64,000 bases of DNA from Octopus sinensis. Its lineage: Eukaryota. The stretch is taken from NCBI RefSeq assembly GCF_006345805.1, contig NC_043000.1:39494001-39558000 (forward strand), given 5' to 3'. Position numbers and translations under genes: made by a program. The notes under the pieces are model-generated. The model did no database searches. It was not told where the DNA came from and saw nothing but the letters and a program-made list of their open reading frames with translations. This document shows positions 17,595-39,605 of the stretch, in pieces. The first letter of the stretch is position 1. The number at the start of each line of letters is the position of its first letter.

Positions 17595-18158
17595 TGGCGC
17601 GACCGGGTGCTTGGTGGCATAACCAGGTGGGCAGACTTGGCTCGTTAGCCTTGGTTGGCAGCCAGTCTAGGAGAAGGAAAACTCTGACTCCAAACCCTCG
17701 CTCCGCTGCCTTGCGGATGCTCTTGTGAGAGGGAAAGGCTATGGGAGTAAACCCAGACAGAAAATCCGGAGTGGAGCCCCGAAGGCGGTAGGGTGTCGAA
17801 TCTCGACCCCTTTCCGGCAACTCCTGCAGCCAACCAGACTCCAAACGTACTGCACAGCATTCCTTTGGATTATGTCTGGGGGGCCGAGAGGGAGATTCTG
17901 GTGTCTGGGCAGCCCAGCGTCTTCGTTTCTACCGCCCAGGCTTGCGCCATGGAGAAACTACTCCATCGATGGAACAAGCTGAGATGGCAGTTACGAGTTT
18001 TAAGCCAGGGTGAATTGGCGTAATCCCGGGCGCTACGGGCCGTCTCTAACGGTGGGAGGAATCATTGAAGTCCCACTGGTCAGCTACCGCCCGCCTTAAG
18101 CTGGGCAGCCCCCGGCCAATAATGGTGCTGACCCGCCACAGACTGCCCGCTTCAATGG

Positions 18159-21100
18159 GTGCTTGGAGCTAGGACAAAATCTGAAAAGCAGACTGAAAAC
18201 CCTGCACCAGCAAACAAAGGTAAAACAAATACCCAGTCACCAGTCTTGCGACTGGCCACCTGGAATGTCAGGACCATGTGCCCTGGCATCATTGACGATC
18301 TACAACAGATGAACGACAGTAGGAAGACAGCAGTCATCAACACCGAATTGAAAAGGCTGAACATTGATATAGCGGCGCTGCAAGAGACCAGGCTCGCCGC
18401 AGACGGCATGCTACGGGAGAAGGACTACACCTTCTACTGGCAGGGGAGACCCGTCGAGGAGGCCCGCCAGCATGGCGTGGGGTTTGCCGTGAGGAACAGC
18501 TTGCTCCCCATGGCGATCCCTCCTTCAAATGGCTCAGAGCGCATCCTCACTCTTAACCTTGCAACATCAACGGGGAAGGCAAACATAATTAGTGCTTATG
18601 CCCCAACACTCCACTCTCCTCAGGAAATAAAAGACCGGTTCTATGAGGAGCTCGACGCCACCATCAGCCAGATACCAGGGTCGGAGCCCATCTTCCTTCT
18701 GGGCGACTTCAACGCAAGGGTGGGATCCGATCATGGGGCATGGCCAGATTGCCTTGGACGCTTTGGCGTGGGAAAGGTGAATGAGAATGGCCAGAGACTG
18801 TTGGAGCTTTGCTCTTACCGGAAACTCTGCATTTCCAACACATTCTTCATGACTAAGCCGCATCACCAGGTCTCATGGAGGCACCCAAGGTCCGGACACT
18901 GGCACCAACTGGACATGGTCATCACCCGGCGAGCCCACCTCGGCAGTGTGCTTCTCACACTCAGCTACCATGGTGCTGACTGTGATACAGACCACTCTTT
19001 GGTGTGCAGCAGGGTCCGATTGGCCCCAAAGAAAATCAACCGTCCCGTAGGGAAAAGCCGCCCACGCATCAACACCGCCAGGACAACCAACCCCGACCTC
19101 CGCTCGGAATTCACCAACCGCATGGAGGAGGCCCTTAAAGATCACGCAGCCACGTCCATCGAGGAGAGATGGCAAATTATTCGCGACACCACTTGCAGAA
19201 TAGCCATGTCATCCCTAGGAAAGAGGGAGCGGAGAAATCAAGACTGGTTTGAAGCTCACCTGCCTGAGATGGAGCCTTTCATTGCTGCCAAGAGGGAAGC
19301 ACTGGTCAACTATAAGCGCGACCCATCAGAAAAGAACCTGGCTACACTGAGAACAGCCAGAAGCGACGCCCAGAGGACGGCCAGACGTTGCGCCAACATC
19401 TACTGGCAGAACTTATGCCAGAACATCCAGTGCTGTGCTGACAGTGGTAACGTGAAAGGGATGTACGAGGGGATGAAGAAAGCATTCGGGCCCACTGTCA
19501 GAAAGTTTGCTCCACTGAAGTCCAGAGATGGCGAGGTCATCAAGGACCAAGCGAAGCAGATGGAGAGGTGGGTCGAGCATTACCAGAACCTCTACTCCAC
19601 TGAGAATGTGGTCACCAGGTCTGCCCTCGCCGGCATTCCCGCTCTGCCTGTCATGGAGGAGCTTGACCTGCCTCCAACAAAGGAAGAACTGAGCAAAGCA
19701 ATTGACTCAATCGCTCGGGGCAAGGCACCAGGGCAAGACGGCATCCCCGCAGAAGTCATCCAGTGCGGGAAGCCAGCCCTTCTGGGCCATCTCCACGAGC
19801 TGCTTTGTCAGTGCTGGGAGGAGGGCTCTGTCCCTAAGGATATGCGTGACGCAAACATCATCACACTGTATAAAAACAAAGGGGACAGAAGCGACTGCAA
19901 TAATTACAGGGGCATATCGCTGCTCAGCACTGTCGGTAAGGCATTTGCCAGGGTGGTCCTGAAGAGGTTGCAAATACTTGCAGAGCGTGTGTACCCCGAG
20001 TCTCAGTCTGGCTTTAGGGCAGAGAGGTCTACAATCGACATGATCTTCTCACTCAGGCAGCTTCAAGAAAAGAGTCGAGAACAGAGACATCCCCTATACG
20101 TGGCCTTCATCGACCTGGCTAAGGCGTTCGACTCAGTCAGCAGGGAGGGGCTGTTTGCGCTCCTGGGTAGGATAGGTTGCCCTCCCAGACTGCTGAAACT
20201 CATCACCTCCTTTCACGACGGCATGCAGGGAACAGTGCAGTTTGACGGATCGCCCTCGGAGTCGTTCCCCATCCAGAGTGGAGTGAAACAGGGTTGCGTT
20301 CTGGCGCCGACGCTCTTCGGAATTTTCTTCTCCCTTGTCCTGTCCTATGCCTTCAGAACGTCCGACGACGGAGTGTTCCTCCACACCAGGGCTGATGGTG
20401 GATTGTTCAATCTTGCGCACCTCAGAGCTAAGACCAAAGTCTGTCAGGTGCTGATCAGAGAGATCCTCTTTGCTGACGATGCCGCCCTAACATCACACAA
20501 CCAGCCGGGTCTCCAGAGGCTGGTCAGCTCCCTGGCGGATGCCTGCCAAGAGTTCGGCCTTACCATCAGCCTGAAAAAGACAGAGATCATGGGCCAGAAC
20601 GTCGGAGGGGTCCCCAGCATCAGTGTCGGCGACCACAGCTTGCAGGTGATGAACGAGTTCACTTACCTGGGATCGACGGTCTCCAGCAGCCTGTCCCTCG
20701 AGCCGGAGCTGAACAGACGGATTGGGAAGGCTGCTGCTGCCATGGCTAAGCTCTCCAGGAGAGTGTGGGAAAACAACATGATCACAATAACCACCAAGAT
20801 CGCAGTGTACCGAGCCTGCGTGCTGAGCACCCTACTCTACGGCAGCGAGAGCTGGACAACATACACCCGGCAGGAATGCCGCCACAGCGGCTTCCACATG
20901 CGGTGTCTTCGACGGATCCTTGGCATCTCCTGGAAGGACCGAGTACCAAACGGAGTCATCCTAGAACAGACTAATATGCCAAGCATGCATGCCCTCCTTG
21001 TGCGGAGACGACTGCGCTGGCTCGGACACGTCTGCCGCATGTAGAACGGTCGCATGCCTAAAGACATCCTGTACAGCGAACTCACCACGGGATCCCGACC

Positions 21101-22148: not shown

Positions 22149-22169
22149 ATATATTATATATATATATTT

Positions 22170-25100
22170 GAGTAATTGAATGATTATCTTATTAAGGATA
22201 ATTCGAAGGATAACCAATACCTGGGTAGCAAATTCACATCAGAAAGAACACGGTTGAAGCTACGTCGCTAGGGCATAGACTACGTGTCTTCGTGCGGAAA
22301 TTTTTATGTTTATTTTAAAATTATAAGTATATGAAAGAATGGAGTTGAACGACTAGTTAACAAATATCCTTATTCTCGACATATGTTTCGAAGGCTGCAT
22401 ATTCCTAATTCCGAAGAAATAAGGAGTACATTATGCAGATTTCTCTCAGGAAAATCAAGGAAACTTATGTCGACATCAAAATGCACAAAAAACCTTTAGC
22501 TGACCGCTCTCAATGAGCCCATGGCGATAATGAGTGTCTCTTTATAATGAGTGACGTCAGAGTGGCTGAATGTAGAAGAATCTAGAAGTTTCTAAAGGTT
22601 CAAGAGTTCAAACGAAGTAGGAGGAGGGAGGCATAAAAATAGTAAGGTGAGAGAGTGCAGGTCAAAAGAATGGTGGGTTTAAATGATTTCTTTTGTGAAT
22701 GAGTGCCTGTGTGTGTGACTGTATATCATCATCATCATCATCATCGTTTAGCGTCCGTTTTCCATGCTAGCATGGGTTGGACGGGTCAACTGGGGTCTGT
22801 GAAGCTGGAAGCTTCGTCAGGCCCAGTCAGATCTGGCAGTGTTTCTACGGCTGGATGCCCTTCCTAACGCCAAACACTCCGCGAGTGTAGTGGGTGTTTT
22901 TTACGTGCCACCTGCACAGGTGCCAGACAGAGCTGGCGAACGGCCACGAACGGATGGTGCTTTTACGTGTCACCGGCACGGGGCCAGGCGATGCTGGCAA
23001 CGGACACGAACGGATGGTGCTTTTACGTGTCACCGGCACGGGGGCCAGCCGAGGCTGGCAACGGACACGGACGGATGGTGCTTTTACGTGCCACCGACAC
23101 GGGCCAGACAGAGCTGGCAAACGGCCACGAACGGATAACTGTCTTAATGTGTGTATGTGTGTGTCTGAATGCGTGATTGTGTTTGTGGATTGGTAGAAGT
23201 CAGAAAACTGACAGCTGTGAGTTGGAAGGTCTGTATCTGGTGTTCGATTATGTTTACTGTAGGGAAAGGAAAGTAGATAGCGAAAGGGAGAAAGAATCGA
23301 GCGAGGTGAGAGGCAACGCAAGAATGGATAGTAGTAATTGGAATATAAGAAAATCTTTTTTGACTATTGGGGTGAAATATAGCAAAAAAAATTGGGGGAA
23401 TTCGAGGGGTTATCTATATTAGTCACTATTTATATGAATGAAAGGTGTGTTCTTTCCAGTGTAAGCACCTGTAGGATCTTTCGACGATTGTGTTTATTAA
23501 AGGGCCTTTGGCGAACAAAATATGAAAAAGTTCGGAATTACAGATGCCACAAAATTTTCTGCCTTTATCAAACGGGAAGGACACCGACAAAATGGACCAT
23601 TCGAGCTTGAACGTAGTGTTATTGTTCTTCAGACGCCAGACTAATTTGCTTAGCCCCGTGCTGTGTTGCTTTCTCTTCTCTGAAAGTGGAATAATGGTTG
23701 AAGACTCTTTGGGCTAATTTAGAAGAGGTTGCGCCAATATAGAAGTAGACATCGGTCCAGAAGAGATTTTGCATTGGTAAGTGGTGTTTCTAATTTTGGA
23801 ATTTTTGGATAAGAACTTTAATCTGTTGGGGTTGGTTTCCGATACTAAGACAGAGTTTTTATTGTTGTGATAGGGTAAAAATTGTTGCTGGTTTTGGCTA
23901 CGATACTATTCCTCTTATTATCATTACTATTAGTTATAATATCGTCGGCAAATTCCCTGGCTATAGGATTGCTGCGATTGTTATCATCAATAATATAACT
24001 GTTATTAGAATGCTGGTACTATTACCACTAACACCACCACTGTTAATAATCTGGCTAATGTTATTATCATTATTACTATTGCTAACGCTAATGCTGCTAT
24101 GAATGTTGCTAATATCCATACTACTTCTATTATTATTATTATTGTATGTTACGTGGAAGGGTAAGGGCGGTGTCGCTACTCATGGGTGGAGAGACCCATT
24201 TTAGCAGCTTATTATTGTGGGAAGCTATTATCTGCGAAAGATTTTTAGTATTTGAGAATGCTATTCTAACTTTATGCGAATTTATAGTGGAGTAGTATCT
24301 AGAATTCATAGGAAAATTCTTAGTAACGGCTTCACGGAATTGTAAAGGGAGATTAGACCTGATTTGTCTCCCGAAAGGAATCACAAACCAGATATAGTTT
24401 TTTTTGTTCTTGGAATGGCTGAGAGTGTTGACATTTACATTAAAGGGTATATTTCTGTGTTGTAGAATGGGTTTTGTTTACGCTGGTTTACCCTAGTCCG
24501 TAAGTATTATTGGTAAAAATATATTTGTGTCGACGTTTCTAGAGCTGAAATCACTATTTATGTTATTTATATTATTATTAGAAGTTATCTTATCTTGATG
24601 GGCAGATATTAGTTTAGGATGGGCCGGATCGATATATGATACCTTATCCCTATAACCGGCTTTTGACAAAGCGGCATTATAAAATTCTGCTTTCTGTTTA
24701 AAAATGTCGACATTTGCTGATAACTGAGATAGTCTTAAGGATATATTTTTAACCAAATTATCGGTGATAGTTTTTGCATGGTTACTGAAAATACTGACAT
24801 ATTTTAGGTTCGTAGACGGCTTATGGTAAGGGAAGTAAGAATTATTATGCAAATTTAGGGTAACATCTAAGAAATTGGCCTTAGTTAGTTCGTTGTCAAA
24901 AATTATGCTCATGCCCATCCTGCTGAAAAATCTAACTAATCTATTTTTAGTCTTCTGTATCCTACTGTTAGGGGCATTATGTAGGTAAAAAAGACAATCG
25001 TCTCGATACAGACCGCCGCATATGTCCGGGAATTAGTCGGCTAATTCATATAGAATATAGATTCCGACCAAATCGGCCACCTGGGCGCTATCTGAGCTTC

Positions 25101-25244
25101 CCATTGGCACATCGAACGCGTTGGGAGTATCCTTACGGACCCATAACTTTTCATTCAACAAAAGAGTAGACCAATCTACTACGGTTTCGTACTGAACTCG
25201 TAAGCATGTGAGTGGGCAGTAAGCTTCTACCACACACCCACGCT

Positions 25245-25740: not shown

Positions 25741-26055
25741 GTGAAACCATTAAAAGTGAAGCAAACATATAAAAGTTTAGCTATTTATAACTGTTACTCC
25801 GTCAATGGTTTCACTTTTATTCTTTGTGTATTGAGACGCAATAGGGAACCAGTGCCAATGCTGCATTGTTTCAATCCCCAAAAGTACATGGTAAAACTCC
25901 TGGTATTCCCATGTAAAATTTGATCTTATTTCGTCGAAACTTTTGAGAAGGCATTGGAAACAGTGATAGAAAAGATTTTATATATTTATGTTTATATATA
26001 TAATATATATATATATATATGTGTGTGTGTATATATATATATATGTGTGTGTGTG

Positions 26056-26106
<51 letters not shown>

Positions 26107-26112
<6 letters not shown>

Positions 26113-26901
26113 TGAGGGAGATAAATTAATATTAATTTTAATATCAATTTAAAACCAGTAGTCTAGCATACAAAAAATCTGAGAAATCAGAGAAAATTCT
26201 AATATATGTGTATATTGGCAGGGCAAGACTGCTAGGTAGTCGGCCGTATGCTAGAAATAGATCATCAACGATCAAACTACAAAGAAAGTTCTCTAGAGGA
26301 AAAATTCAGCGAACACCAGAACCAAATTTTGCGGGCAGGACAGATGAAAATTTATATAAAAAACAGAATTAATTGCATACCTCGGTTTCGGCCTTTAACA
26401 AAAGAATTACTTACATAATTCAAATGTCCGTGGCCTCATCAGTACAATCGTTCAGTGTAAATACAATTTGAAAAACTAACCCCAGCTTTCTGTGCCAAGA
26501 CAGAACGTGCTTAGTTTTACCGATTACATTAGGGATAAAATTTCAAATGTCTTAGTTCCGGCGCGCTAAAAAATTCCTGAAGCGAAGAACTGCAGTAAAT
26601 AATTCACTGCGGTTAGTGCTTGCTACTAGAGAACGTATTTATTTCAGTATTTAAATAATGAGGGAGATAAATTAATATTAATTTTAATATCAATTTAAAA
26701 CCAGTAGTCCAGCACACAAAAATCTGAGGAGTCAGAGAAAATTCTAATATATGTGTATATTGGCAGGGCAAGACTGCTAGGTAGTCGGCGTATGCTAGAA
26801 ATAGATCATCAACGATTTAACTACAAAGAAAGTTCTCTAGAGGAGATCATTGATGATCTATTTCTAGCATACGGCCGACTACCTAGCAGTCTTGCCCTGC
26901 A

Positions 26902-26905
<4 letters not shown>
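26107..26905 (-). mobile_element. Non-autonomous PLE/retrozyme-like module: 546-bp-period direct repeat plus terminal inversion
   Basis: 26107-26300 is repeated at 26653-26845; 26845-26905 inverts about 26755-26815; HHR inside; (TA)n flanks. Confidence 0.75.
26372..26448 (-). ncRNA. Type I hammerhead ribozyme
   Basis: attgta CTGATGA ggcc...ggcc GAAA cc ga gg TA tgcaat; full core and all three stems present. Confidence 0.85.
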
Positions 26906-26939
<34 letters not shown>

Positions 26940-26954
26940 ATTAATATATATATA

Positions 26955-27039
<85 letters not shown>

Positions 27040-28643: not shown

Positions 28644-28710
<67 letters not shown>

Positions 28711-28806
28711 AAATTAGAGACAAAACCACTATTATGCAAATCAAACAAAGAAAGACTTAAGCCAATACATAAAATATAAGTTTATAACTCGCTAAGAAGG
28801 TTTAGA

Positions 28807-28858
28807 AACCACCTGAAGAATGTCTAAGATGTGCTGACACGAAACGATCGTAGTGGTT
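28807..28858 (+). ncRNA. Minimal type I hammerhead ribozyme between inverted repeats
   Basis: aaccac CTGAAGA atgtc...gacac GAAA cgatcg TA gtggtt. Confidence 0.85.
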
Positions 28859-29447
28859 ATTCATTTGTTAAATTTTAATTTATATAAATTATTTTATATT
28901 TTATGTATTGACTTAAGTCTTTCTTTGTTTGAGTTGCATAATAGTGGTTTTGTCTCTAATTTATTATAATATAATATTTTATTATAAAATTGGATTCAAT
29001 CTTAAATCTGATTTTTCCTTGTAAATTTGGATTTATTCCCTAATATTTATTATTATATATATATATATACATATATATATATCAATAATACAGTGATTGT
29101 TTCTTATCAGGAACAAAATGTTTAATAGGACTGCTATAGAAGTGCTCAATTAAATGGTTTCTTATTTAAGAAGTCATGCTTAAATAAGCATGAAAGAATT
29201 AAAGCAGTAAAAAAAAAGTTTTAAAAAAACGTTAAAAAAACAGTTAAAATTTTTTTTTAATTTAAAAAACAACATTAATGGGTGTATTAAATTAAATTCA
29301 ACCTCGATGGTTTCAATTTTTTACTGCTTTAGTTCTTTCATTTGGGCTGGTCTAAGCATGACTTCTTAAATAAGAAACCACGCAATATTATGTTAGGTCT
29401 GGTTAAGGAGGTCTCGCTCTGGTACGTGATGTCTGTCTCTCTATTTT

Positions 29448-30423: not shown

Positions 30424-30460
30424 GTATATATATATATATGTATATATTATATATATATAT

Positions 30461-32220
30461 ATAGATAATAAAGTTTGTTTGTGAAAGCACGTGAGTGAAT
30501 ATATAAGAAAATAGTAAAAAGTGAAAAAACGACAGAAGGTTTAAATGTTAAAGAATATATATATTTGCGTCAATATGTCTGGAGAATATTGACATATTGA
30601 CGCAAATATATATATTCTTTAACATTTAAACCTTCTGTCGTTTTTTCACTTTTTACTATTTTCTTATATATTCACCCACGTGCTTTCACAAACAAACTTT
30701 CTTATCTATATATTAAACACGTGAGACCGAAAATGCCACAGAAGTCAAACACCTCGGATAAAACCTTAAATGAGGACATACTCAAAGAACTGAAAAATAT
30801 TAATTCACAGCTTCTTAACCTGAACAACAAAATCGAGGAATCAAACTTACTCGCCCGGGAAAGTAAAAGTAATGAAGATGCAACTCGCTACACTGACCAG
30901 GTGAGTAAGGATTTACAACTGTTATATACAACACTAAACTCAATTTTCATCAACAAATCCGAAAATAATACACAGGTACCTAATGAAACACAACAGGACA
31001 CCATACGCACCCAAATCAACCCAGCAAAAAGAAAAATAGGAAACGTTTGGAATACAAACCTGCACAACAGAAAACTCACCTTCTGGAACATGATAAAAAA
31101 TTCCAACAAAGCAGATATTTACGAGGGATGGATAAACTCAACACCAATTATCCTCCCACGCAAATTCCAGATAAAATTAATTCCTAACGAGCCTGACGGA
31201 CAGAGATCTATTAGAGAAAAGTCAGCTCTGTTCAATTTTAAATCAGAAATAGAGCTTCTAAGACTCAGGGCCTCCACAAATGAAGAAAAACTTAAAAGCA
31301 TAGACGAGGAGATGCACAATCTAATACTAAAACATACCGAGGGACAACCCCTCGAAAATACATTGGATCATTGGAAGGATACCTGTGAGAGAGAGAGAGA
31401 GAAATTCTCTCCTACGCTGGGAGAAAAACATGGACTTCTTCCAAAAATATAGTGAAACTTTCAAAAATGAATTGGGTACGAATAATCCCTCCTAAGAAAA
31501 TTACAATAAATAAAAAGAAAAACCAAACAACCCACGAACAACCCCCAACTATCCTCCATACACTAAAAACAGAAATCACCCACAACCAACCTTTGCAAAC
31601 CACGCAAGACCTAACAGGGAACTAGCTGACAGAGGACGCGTCTATGAAAGAAATTACACCAAAAACAGAACACACCAACAACATCCTAATACCAGACCCA
31701 ACCACCATACAGCACAATACGACACTAGAATAAGAAATACACCACACACAAATCGCTACTACCCCATGAACCAAAATTACTGGTCCCCACTAAACACAAG
31801 ACAAACGCAAAAAAACACTATGTCAAGCAACATCCCACATACAAGCAGTTCGAAACAAAAATATTTCCCATACAGAAATTTTACACACACCACAAACAAA
31901 AACCATAGATTCCCACACACACACAACGATCGGAGGCAACAATACCACCACTCCCCCAACCAAATACCACACAACCTCACAGACAACTCATACAAACAAA
32001 ATTACACCCAACATTTTTTAGCCAGGGACCAGGGACACCAGGACACAGGCTGGAACCTAGTAATAAGGAAAAACCGAACATAATCAATCTTTCAAACAAA
32101 CCTCTTTCTAACATAAAAATTGACATCCTCGCAAAAGGGCTCAAATTTACACCAACTCCACGCAGAGCCAACCTAAATGAACTCAAGGATAATATAACAG
32201 AATTTTGCAGAAAATTATCA
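30461..32220 (+). mobile_element. Penelope-like element 5' portion preceded by a fold-back hairpin
   Basis: ORF 30721-31452, then a low-complexity region, then NIINLSNKPLSNIKIDILAKGLKFTPTPRR at about 32075-32220, the conserved pre-RT motif of PLEs; truncated by a LINE. Confidence 0.7.
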
Positions 32221-36544: not shown

Positions 36545-36614
<70 letters not shown>

Positions 36615-36895
36615 CAATTGAGGGTAAAATTAATTAATTAATTAATCAATTTCACCAAGTATTCAGTATGCAAAGGACCATTTAAGGCGAATTCAAATTA
36701 TTACATTATATAAAAGGGCTTAGTAAAATAAATTACTTTGCCGCATACTGAACTCGTTAGAAATAGCAGCTAAAAAAACTTTTTATAAAACTATTTCTAA
36801 CACTTAAAGAAAACTTCTCTCATATAGTGTTTGCTCAATTCAACTCAAGAAAGTATGGGGGTAGAGACATTAAAAAATCAAATGCAAAGGTTATT

Positions 36896-36948
36896 TGAGT
36901 ACGTACGTTTCAAGATTAGTCAAAATCGACCCTTCTCTCATCAGCTCA
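36896..36948 (-). ncRNA. Hammerhead ribozyme (inverted copy)
   Basis: Reverse complement of the array HHR. Confidence 0.85.
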
Positions 36949-37530
36949 GAATGCCCTTGTTTGAATTTGAAAACACTGAAAATGGGAGCATACCCTTTCG
37001 GCTTGTTATCGCTTCTGAAGATCTGTTCCAAACTAACAGTGCCAACAAACTCAAATATGCATACTTTCTTGAGTTGAATTGAGCAAACACTATATGAGAG
37101 AGGTTTTCTTTAAGTGTTAGAAATAGTTTTATAAAAAGTTTTTTTAGCTGCTATTTCTAACGAGTTCAGTATGCGGCAAAGTAATTTATTTTACTAAGCC
37201 CTTTTATATAATGTAATAATTTGAATTCGCCTTAAATGGTCCCTTTGCATACTGAATACTTGGTGAAATTGATTAATTATTAATTAATTTTACCCTCAAT
37301 TGTTGAAATTATAATTCATCTCTCTCTACTTAATGTCTCGGATTTTACCGAAAAAAGCATAGTGTTTGCTGATTTTAACCCACGCTGGTGGAAAGGGGAG
37401 AGCAGAAATTCTTCGCTTGCATATTTGAGTTTGTTGGCACTGTTAGTTTGGAACAGATCTTCAGAAGCGATAACAGGCCGAAAGGGTATGCTCCCATTTT
37501 CAGTGTTTTGAAATTCAAACAAGGGCATTC

Positions 37531-37583
37531 TGAGCTGATGAGAGAAGGGTCGATTTTGACTAATCTTGAAACGTACGTACTCA
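37531..37583 (+). ncRNA. Hammerhead ribozyme, array copy 1
   Basis: tgag CTGATGA gagaagggtc gatttt gactaatctt GAAA cgtacg TA ctca; predicted cut after 37579. Confidence 0.85.
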
Positions 37584-38090
37584 ATAACCTTTGCATTTGA
37601 TTTTTTAATGTCTCTACCCCCATACTTTCTTGAGTGAATTGAGCAAACACTATATGAGAGAGGTTTTCTTTAAGTGTTAGAAATAGTTTTATAAAAAGTT
37701 TTTTTAGCTGCTATTTCTAACGAGTTCAGTATGCGGCAAAGTAATTTATTTTACTAAGCCCTTTTATATAATGTAATAATTGATTCGCTTCGCCTAAATG
37801 TCCCTTTGCATACTGAATACTTGGTGAAATTGATTAATTAATTAATTAATTTTACCCTCAATTGTTGAAATTATAATTCATCTCTCTCTACTTAATGTCT
37901 CGGATTTTACCGACAAAAGCATAGTGTTTGCTGATTTTAACCCACGCTGGTGGAAAGGGGAGAGCAGAAATTCTTCGCTTGCATATTTGAGTTTGTTGGC
38001 ACTGTTAGTTTGGAACAGATCTTCAGAAGCGATAACAAGCCGAAAGGGTATGCTCCCATTTTCAGGTTTTCAATTCAAACAAGGGCATTC

Positions 38091-38143
38091 TGAGCTGATG
38101 AGAGAAGGGTCGATTTTGACTAATCTTGAAACGTACGTACTCA
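38091..38143 (+). ncRNA. Hammerhead ribozyme, array copy 2
   Basis: Identical motif. Confidence 0.85.
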
Positions 38144-38646
38144 AATAACCTTTGCATTTGATTTTTTAATGTCTCTACCCCCATACATTCTTGAGTTGAA
38201 TTGAGCAAACACTATATGAGAGAGGTTTTCTTAAGTGTTAGAAATAGTTTTATAAAAAGTTTTTTTAGCTGCTATTTCTAACGAGTTCAGTATGCGGCAA
38301 AGTAATTATTTTACTAAGCCCTTTTATATAATGTAATAATTTGAATTCGCCTTAAATGGTCCCTTTGCATACTGAATACTGGTGAAATTGATTAATTAAT
38401 TAATATTTTACCCTCAATTGTTGAAATTATAATTCATCTCTCTCTACTTAATGTCTCGGATTTTACCGAAAAAAGCATAGTGTTTGCTGATTTTAACCCA
38501 CGCTGGTGGAAAGGGGAGAGCAGAAATTCTTCGCTTGCATATTTGAGTTTGTTGGCACTGTTAGTTTGGAACAGATCTTCAGAAGCGATAACAAGCCGAA
38601 AGGGTATGCTCCCATTTTCTGTTTTCAAATTCAAACAAGGGCATTC

Positions 38647-38699
38647 TGAGCTGATGAGAGAAGGGTCGATTTTGACTAATCTTGAAACGTACGTACTCA
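38647..38699 (+). ncRNA. Hammerhead ribozyme, array copy 3
   Basis: Identical motif. Confidence 0.85.
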
Positions 38700-38890
38700 A
38701 TAACCTTTGCATTTGATTTTTTAATGTCTCTACCCCCATACTTTCTTGAGTTGAATTGAGCAAACACTATATGAGAGAGGTTTTCTTTAAGTGTTAGAAA
38801 TAGTTTTATAAAAAGTTTTTTTAGCTGCTATTTCTAACGAGTTCAGTATGCGGCAAAGTATTTTATTTACTAAGCCCTTTTATATAATGT

Positions 38891-38971
<81 letters not shown>

Positions 38972-39017: not shown

Positions 39018-39104
39018 ATAGTGTGTGTGTGGTGTATATATATATATAATATATATATAATATATATATACTTACATAAGGCCAAAGAGGGTACGGACGT
39101 CGCT

Positions 39105-39352
39105 ATATATATTATATGTAGAAAAATACAAACTGGGACAAGAACGTAAAACATTAGAAGACGATACAAAAAACACGGACGGGACATTCGAAGCCTTCAA
39201 TCTTCAGTCAAAAACCGGATCATCCTAGCAATTTCGGCTGATTAATCTAGACTGAAGATTGAAGGCTTCGGATGTCCCGTCCATGTTTTTTGTATCGTCT
39301 TCTAAATGTTTTACGTTCTTGTCCCAGTTTGTATATTTCTACATATAATATA
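39105..39352. repeat. Inverted repeat (~104-bp arms, ~40-nt spacer)
   Basis: 39105-39209 versus 39250-39352. Confidence 0.9.
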
Positions 39353-39415
39353 CATATATTACGGAGATGTACTCACATAGCAAGTAATTTGATCTGAGAT
39401 CGTGTGCTGAAACGA

Positions 39416-39605
39416 AAACAATTGCAGCGTGGAAGGTGTTTATAAGCCATTTAAGAAACAGACAAAAGCCGTTCGATTCACTTCAACATTTAAGTTTAAT
39501 TTGTCAAAATATTTTGACAAATTAAACTTAAATGTTGAAGTGAATCGAACGGCTTTTGTCTGTTTCTTAAATGGCTTATAAACACCTTCCACGCTGCAAT
39601 TGTTT
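39416..39605. repeat. Spacerless palindrome, 95-bp arms
   Basis: Centre TTGTCAAAAT|ATTTTGACAA at 39510/39511. Confidence 0.95.

Follow-up and report, generated by a model that had tools for sequence, protein, structure and literature searches.

The locus at 26107-26905 raises the question of what kind of element carries a single hammerhead ribozyme in a unit that is followed by a partial copy of itself and by an inverted piece, and of how such an arrangement came to lie within a (TA)n microsatellite. The locus is part of a window of 64,000 nucleotides, the whole stretch of Octopus sinensis DNA analyzed here. In the first-pass annotation it was described as a unit of period 546 with a partial direct repeat, ending in a ~60-bp inversion within (TA)n, and this layout was borne out, with the inversion measuring 59 bp. 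The minus-strand hammerhead placed at 26372-26448 was also confirmed, as a type I hammerhead at 26371-26449, by descriptor, conservation and covariation. With the minus strand taken as the RNA, the fixed 3' end lies on the left and the variable, inverted 5' end on the right, and the features are as follows.

26107-26652, minus strand (RNA sense): complete 546-bp non-coding unit, with no ORF or PLE-like frame seen
26653-26844, minus strand: second copy, 5'-truncated (unit positions 1-194), a pseudo-LTR-like partial tandem without the hammerhead
26845-26903, plus strand: inverted second arm, unit positions ~107-167, its outer end being site B
25979-26106: (TA)n/(TG)n microsatellite forming the left side of the target
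26904-27036: (TA)n microsatellite, right part of the target
26107-26115, minus strand: start site A at unit position 1, where the long arm has its fixed outer end
26202-26216, minus strand: start site B, a TA-like motif, ATATATGTGTATATT, at unit positions 96-110, AC/AU-rich as RNA
26107-26213, minus strand: the ~100-nt 'tail' between sites A and B
26371-26449, minus strand: type I hammerhead, from descriptor scan, MFE fold and conservation

The partial repeat comprises 192 bp that are 96% identical to unit positions 1-194, and the start-to-start spacing is 546, then 545 and 544 past two one-base gaps. The inverted arm matches 26212-26273 at 97% over 62 nt, continues into (TA)n, and meets the long arm with zero overlap. 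Site A sits within the join of TATTT and AAATA in the tandem unit. The locus thus consists of an A arm of 1.35 units and a 59-nt B arm, and TA/TG microsatellite flanks it on both sides (25979-26111 and 26902-27036), where the (TA)n masks any target-site duplication. Because the partial repeat ends before the ribozyme, the locus contains a single hammerhead. The 546-bp unit showed no notable coding frame, and since it holds no ORF for RT plus GIY-YIG, the element is considered non-autonomous.

The same insertion, with the same flanks, is found on contig C2 (L002; 95-99% over 2.8 kb), and because the flanks are shared it is not an independent event. Parts of the window recur on C2, a contig of chromosome size, at 8.83-8.98 Mb (L002, L102, L103, L358) with 95-100% identity, as a segmental duplication or an assembly duplicate. 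Additionally, a run of N within 44333-49239 is flanked on either side by copies, 99.9% identical, of one 2.4-kb stretch, which probably reflects overlapping assembly at the gap.

Searches of the genome established that the locus is one of hundreds of dispersed copies of a protein-free hammerhead element. A DNA search with the unit returned 1859 candidates, of which 40 were scored, at 93-100% identity, and three exact patterns gave 79, 356 (a 24-mer) and 69 matches, against 0 control matches. In three sets, 167 non-redundant insertions were mapped, 89 of them single-armed and 78 two-armed; 9 loci of set 1 and 14 of set 2 were left out for sharing the place or flanks of another locus, and the C2 twin of the window copy was amongst the dropped loci. 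As judged from the flanks of the mapped sets, the target is a (TA)n microsatellite. The family is characterized by a non-coding, low-GC unit, a type I hammerhead, tandem occurrence and no long terminal repeats. It is a real new family of a kind already known, the animal non-LTR retrozyme, and its identity as a non-autonomous hammerhead element of the Penelope-like element (PLE) type is very probable.

The hammerhead has helix I AUUGUA/UGCAAU and the core CUGAUGA followed by GAAA, in type I order and with an NUH at the core. Helix II (GGCC/GGCC) closes a 38-nt structured loop, helix III (ACCGAGGU) is short and near-palindromic, and the predicted cut falls between 26378 and 26377, which corresponds to unit position 271. 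A descriptor scan of the 64 kb returned 7 hammerhead candidates, namely this one, four in the array at 36.6-38.9 kb and two weak ones. None of the 126 matches from an Rfam cmscan of the whole window at E<=1 was a hammerhead, the output being microsatellite-driven miRNA noise only; this miss is probably due to the long insert in helix II. The hammerhead call consequently relies on the descriptor, conservation and covariation, and the local fold is modestly better than that of shuffles (z -1.9).

Conservation of the ribozyme amongst genomic copies of the unit was the point on which the first-pass annotation had staked its reading, and in a set chosen by a pattern outside the ribozyme, intact cores were found in 50 of 53 copies, core mismatches numbering 4 over 583 positions. 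Full-length units in the same set are 84-92% identical to the window copy. Helix I shows one compensatory change (U-A to A-U) and one consistent change (U-G to C-G) between subfamilies, and in sister family 4 helices I and II are re-paired using other letters, so that the stem covariation amounts to few independent events. In a monomer, helix III closes a 2-nt loop, and its pairing with a second copy has a value of -6.6 kcal/mol, which fits the dimer-type design described for PLE hammerheads in PMC4209133. At least two same-strand hammerheads occur in only 12 of the 167 insertions. The locus copy, having a single ribozyme, cannot itself release a 546-nt circle such as the one that the first-pass annotation proposed to look for.

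The outer ends of the copies fall on sites A and B, which are ~100 nt apart and both TA-like. With arm ends taken as BLAST limits, which are blurred in AT-rich sequence, single-armed copies start at A in 56 of 89 cases and at B in 28, and one arm of the two-armed copies starts at A in 76 of 78. The arms pair A with B in 66 of these 78 (36/41 in set 1, 22/26 and 8/11 in the later sets, found with other patterns); 7 combine A with a site at 123-131, just past B, and 5 are of other types. Independent choice at the single-arm frequencies would give A/B in 44% of cases. B/B pairs are absent (0/78), and there is at most one A/A-like pair (L089, starts 1 and 21). The 30 loci of family 4, chosen for having an A arm, contain 14 inverted arms, every one of which begins at a B-like site. 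Of the 8 two-armed loci of an intact autonomous PLE, 7 are A/B and one (L231) is A/A, and one Hydra-like PLE locus is also A/B. The one-sided tail of PLE insertions is already part of the published descriptions (in the text available from PMC8557442 and PMC3846280); in the open-access main texts of the PLE literature, neither counts of A/B pairing nor a proposal of twin priming for PLEs was found.

The sequences of these insertions suggest that the element is likely copied in trans by a Penelope-like RT/GIY-YIG enzyme, with two cDNAs made on one RNA in a nicked (TA)n target, and we regard two-site priming on one RNA as probable. A multi-unit transcript of a tandem source copy, or a circle, would be bound through the conserved ~100-nt tail. 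Both strands of the (TA)n target would then be cut, and each 3' end would anneal to a TA-like motif of the RNA, with two enzyme subunits acting, one per start site; the products show different fixed starts and the same variant. As seen in the products, the arms end at variable points and their inner ends are joined with little or no overlap, and an arm can run past the unit boundary, giving a partial tandem such as that at 26653-26844. The hammerhead is predicted to cut as a dimer in multi-unit RNA, which would make unit position 271 the 5' end of a minority of templates. What had been called a fold-back at this locus is best read as the second priming event.

The nature of the template is a separate matter. 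In the retrozyme model, a 546-nt circular RNA would be formed when two hammerheads cleave and the product is ligated, and the partial tandems would result from its rolling-circle reverse transcription; we consider such a template rather doubtful. Contigs from four sequencing runs that are not on record as RNA showed cover of the element, which speaks neither for nor against its expression as linear or circular RNA. In favor of a circle, circles have been shown for coral and other animal retrozymes (in the available text of PMC7229834), the unit folds well (z -5.2), arms cross the cut site freely, and the tandem units of one insertion mostly share a variant, differing in 32 of 582 polymorphic-site comparisons where random pairs differ in 30%. 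However, several tandem pairs mix variants (L045 7/33, L083 6/18, the window copy 2/20), so that a single template is not universal, and monomer release would be possible in only the 12 insertions with at least two ribozymes, the locus copy not being one of them. Additionally, a PLE used uncut RNA in vitro, as reported in PMC11167929, and the products are also accounted for by linear RNA transcribed from a homogeneous array. The question of a circle bears on the template alone and does not conflict with two-site priming.

Whether the ribozyme acts on these templates was approached through the arm ends near the cut. In first-pass arms, from sets picked downstream of the cut and with L273 excluded because its start is cut by the locus edge, ends fell at unit positions 242-271 at 1.2 per 100 nt at risk (18 ends), compared with 0.17-0.24 beyond. 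A further set excluding the earlier loci gave 0.79 (11 ends) against 0.18-0.38 (p 0.004), with the interval fixed on the earlier set. Set 1, which was selected to span the ribozyme, showed no excess of ends at the cut site (6/132), and neither did the later passes (3 ends in 845 nt). The pile-up is confounded by the composition of positions 242-271, which are 87% AT with two palindromes and a TA run, and an end exactly at 271 occurs only in L329. The accumulation just short of the predicted cut is no more than suggestive of cleavage, and we place predicted cleavage in vivo slightly below an even chance.

The two start sites also differ in what adjoins them, with a TG run of at least 8 nt at 16 of 79 B ends versus 1 of 115 A ends. 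These runs may come from slippage of the enzyme on the ACAC of site B, or from later microsatellite growth seeded by TGTG. A combined reading, in which a dimeric enzyme loaded on one RNA has to start one strand at A and its partner strand at B, in which cleavage by the hammerhead takes place in vivo and fixes how far 5' some templates reach, and in which telomerase-like slippage adds the (TG)n, is unlikely to hold in all its parts.

As a mechanism, fold-back would have a cDNA or antisense RNA prime itself at a palindrome and copy back as far as a TA-like motif that can pair with the target. Such self-priming, with an antisense template, has been proposed for PLE inverted repeats (in the text available from PMC3846280), and palindromic junctions occur in a few copies (L039, L251, L298). 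It would also produce arms with shared variants, as are found here: inverted arms differ from their own forward arm in 17 of 446 polymorphic-site comparisons, and a rank test for arms sharing a variant gave 34/38. Yet junction overlap is 0-3 nt in 35 of 67 junctions, and neither arm is contained in the other in 11 insertions, 4 of which share no unit position at all. Moreover, long arms that start at B and lack the tail still receive an inverted arm from A (L040, L051, L073, L075), and self-priming gives no reason for the lack of A/A and B/B pairs. The shared variants, taken together with the non-overlapping pairs and the short junction overlaps, favor two primings of a single RNA or source over fold-back. 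The A/B pairing further disfavors fold-back as a mechanism, and we consider it improbable. Most arms overlap in sequence and traverse both B and the cut site, and because this differs from simple single-pass twin priming, strand displacement or repeated template use must be assumed for two-site priming.

An enzyme acting in trans implies an autonomous partner, and the genome holds young (TA)n-targeted PLEs with intact frames and two 3' ends each. Protein searches and 70 PLE stretches yielded several Neptune-like and Hydra-like families, none with extended similarity to families 1, 2 or 4. A profile of the tail matched none of the PLEs' own tails in the 150 loci sampled (794 kb), which cover part of the PLE families. 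Pairwise tail comparisons gave one strong result in 27, to one Hydra-like subfamily (z 4.8), and the family 4 tail compared with a Neptune-like tail gave z 3.1.

The two-frame PLEs, which we take to be Neptune-like from their motifs, combine RVT_1 with GIY-YIG and have atypical hammerhead-like cores as read by eye. Several young PLE families (L182, L184, L212, L221, L227, L388) carry a frame of 440-500 aa upstream of, and overlapping, an RT/GIY-YIG frame of 775-840 aa; the altered cores read CCGAAGA and UUGAAAA by eye, and canonical PLEs are described with one ORF. A junction in L309 was considered as a Neptune-type hammerhead and dropped, being a 55-nt piece without a BLAST match to PLE loci. 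The single-frame Hydra-like PLEs (~900 aa) have DKT, an RW motif, CxxC, and CxH near the end, together with a canonical long-helix-II hammerhead and a palindromic helix III. DKT, RW, CxxC and CxH are given as motifs of the Hydra clade in the available text of PMC8557442. The CxCX5C linker was not seen in the one Hydra-like protein examined for it, and Pfam returned no family for the Hydra-like proteins. On ribozyme design, a Hydra-like partner is weakly favored.

PLE remnants also occur in the window itself. At ~22167-25244 on the minus strand lies a 5'-truncated Hydra-like PLE with a broken frame and an asparagine-rich insert between RT and endonuclease; a further repeat, made of 61-bp tandem units, is inserted in its 3' UTR, and its hammerhead core is one base short. 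At 30457-32220 a two-frame Neptune-like PLE is represented by its 5' part, the 5' end being palindromic; Pfam matched nothing in its first frame, of which near-identical copies occur across the genome. The window fragments 24493-25029 and 31514-32080 were assigned to no Pfam family. An intact-looking 970-aa LINE frame with APE endonuclease plus RT is present at 18132-21044.

The copies could alternatively be 3' stubs of an autonomous PLE yet to be found and not a separately propagating family. The stubs of 5'-truncated PLEs have the same ends, and the sample of loci is partial. However, where a copy continues beyond unit position 546, it resumes at position 1 and does not enter an ORF, arrays reach 4-5 units (L028, L273), and no common PLE-coding continuation stood out amongst 32 single-armed junctions into non-TA sequence, which makes this explanation very improbable. 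A satellite or MITE-like repeat acting at the DNA level, in which the resemblance to a hammerhead is accidental, and for which the Rfam miss and the local fold z of only -1.9 could be cited, is practically dismissed by the fixed 3' starts, the variable 5' truncation, the conserved core and the stems that covary across families.

The array at 36.6-38.9 kb had been regarded as the same type of element but as an independent family without visible similarity. The first part of this assessment is supported and the second is not, because the two elements share a layout and a homologous 3' tail of ~110 nt. The first ~110-150 nt of both units align with a score of 81 versus 47+-6 for shuffles (0/500), and a repeat of the test gave z 5.1 (0/300 shuffles), where the aligned segment was picked after the likeness had been seen and both sequences are AT-rich, so that geometry weighs as much as score. 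In that geometry, B lies ~90-105 nt from A and the cut 271 versus 286 nt from A. The remainder of the two units showed no alignment above chance (51/200 shuffles). The ~100-nt tail is homologous to those of the array family and of sister family 4, the latter with 252 exact matches in the genome. As far as their aligned sequences indicate, the 546-bp family and the array are separate families of one lineage sharing a 3' module.

Several observations were made on these relatives. In the array (36610-38896), the inverted arm has site A at its outer end, and the tandem arm, which holds three hammerheads, ends at the array's site B; helix III is a perfect palindrome and, unlike the 546-bp locus, the array could release monomers. 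A two-armed family 4 insert (A arm 76 nt, B arm 67 nt) lies at 52373-52514 inside a larger repeat with 1410 first-look candidates; a look-alike at 52372 was accordingly rejected as a parent, being this insert carried in the larger repeat. Single arms of family 4 that stop exactly at B, as tail-only inserts, occur in L129, L130, L135, L139, L140 and L148, and family 1 arms often end at B of the second unit (13 ends). Near-perfect palindromic inserts adjoining (TA)n at 39104-39356, 39416-39605, 28695-28977 and 52067-52365 may be two-armed products of other families.

Amongst known systems, the animal non-LTR retrozymes (PMC7229834; bioRxiv 10.64898/2026.07.22.740005) resemble the 546-bp element in their non-coding AT-rich unit, type I hammerhead and occurrence as monomers, partial tandems and arrays, and the same papers, in their available text, propose them as non-autonomous PLE derivatives. 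A unit of 546 bp lies above the 150-450 bp range given in PMC7229834 and inside the 51-972 bp given in the bioRxiv paper. The present family, known here from sequence, is mostly dispersed, 5'-truncated and two-armed rather than in long arrays. By the 'active' criterion of Li et al. (two or more adjoining units that carry a complete hammerhead), the locus copy does not qualify and 12 of the 167 insertions do. Start sites, inverted arms and TA targeting are described in neither retrozyme paper, as far as the available text of the two extends.

The insertions of EN+ PLEs offer a further parallel, since they too combine a partial tandem with an inverted, 5'-truncated copy, carry a tail at only one end and a hammerhead in the repeat, and target microsatellites (PMC3846280, PMC8557442, in the text available). 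The 546-bp family differs from them in lacking an ORF and in its ~100-nt tail, compared with 30-40 nt, and a tail on one arm, called 'optional' in EN+ PLEs, is nearly obligate here (66-73/78). Like the element, the Hydra-like PLE of this genome targets (TA)n, has two 3' ends and carries a hammerhead whose helix II is long and whose helix III is palindromic; its tail of ~155 nt is weakly similar (1 of 3 subfamilies, z 4.8), with the clade set by motifs and not by a tree.

In L1 twin priming, the two 3' ends of the target prime one RNA and give a head-to-head inversion, with an opportunistic second site and non-overlapping arms. The 546-bp family differs in that the second site is fixed and the arms usually overlap.

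For Poseidon PAc of Anolis, two RT start sites and the cleavage and extension of both strands were reported in vitro in the available text of PMC11167929. As in the 546-bp element, two internal starts downstream of the hammerhead bound a tail, with an AC-rich site, an AT-rich target and a predicted dimer. The PAc starts are not homologous to the target and no difference between strands is reported in that text, whereas both sites of the 546-bp family are TA-like and its arms use different ones. The origin of the tandem and inverted repeats of PLEs and of their one-sided tail is named as an open question in PMC8557442 and PMC11167929, in the text available. The joint reading with a dimeric enzyme would, if true, explain head-to-head repeats and the one-sided tail without antisense self-priming. 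Near-obligate A/B pairing on a shared template predicts that the strands of one in vitro PLE integration product start at different sites. Families that have otherwise diverged keep the ~100-nt tail, a candidate for the minimal cis element in mobilization in trans. The element itself is ordinary, and its value lies in providing a clean, young and countable set of Penelope-type insertion products.
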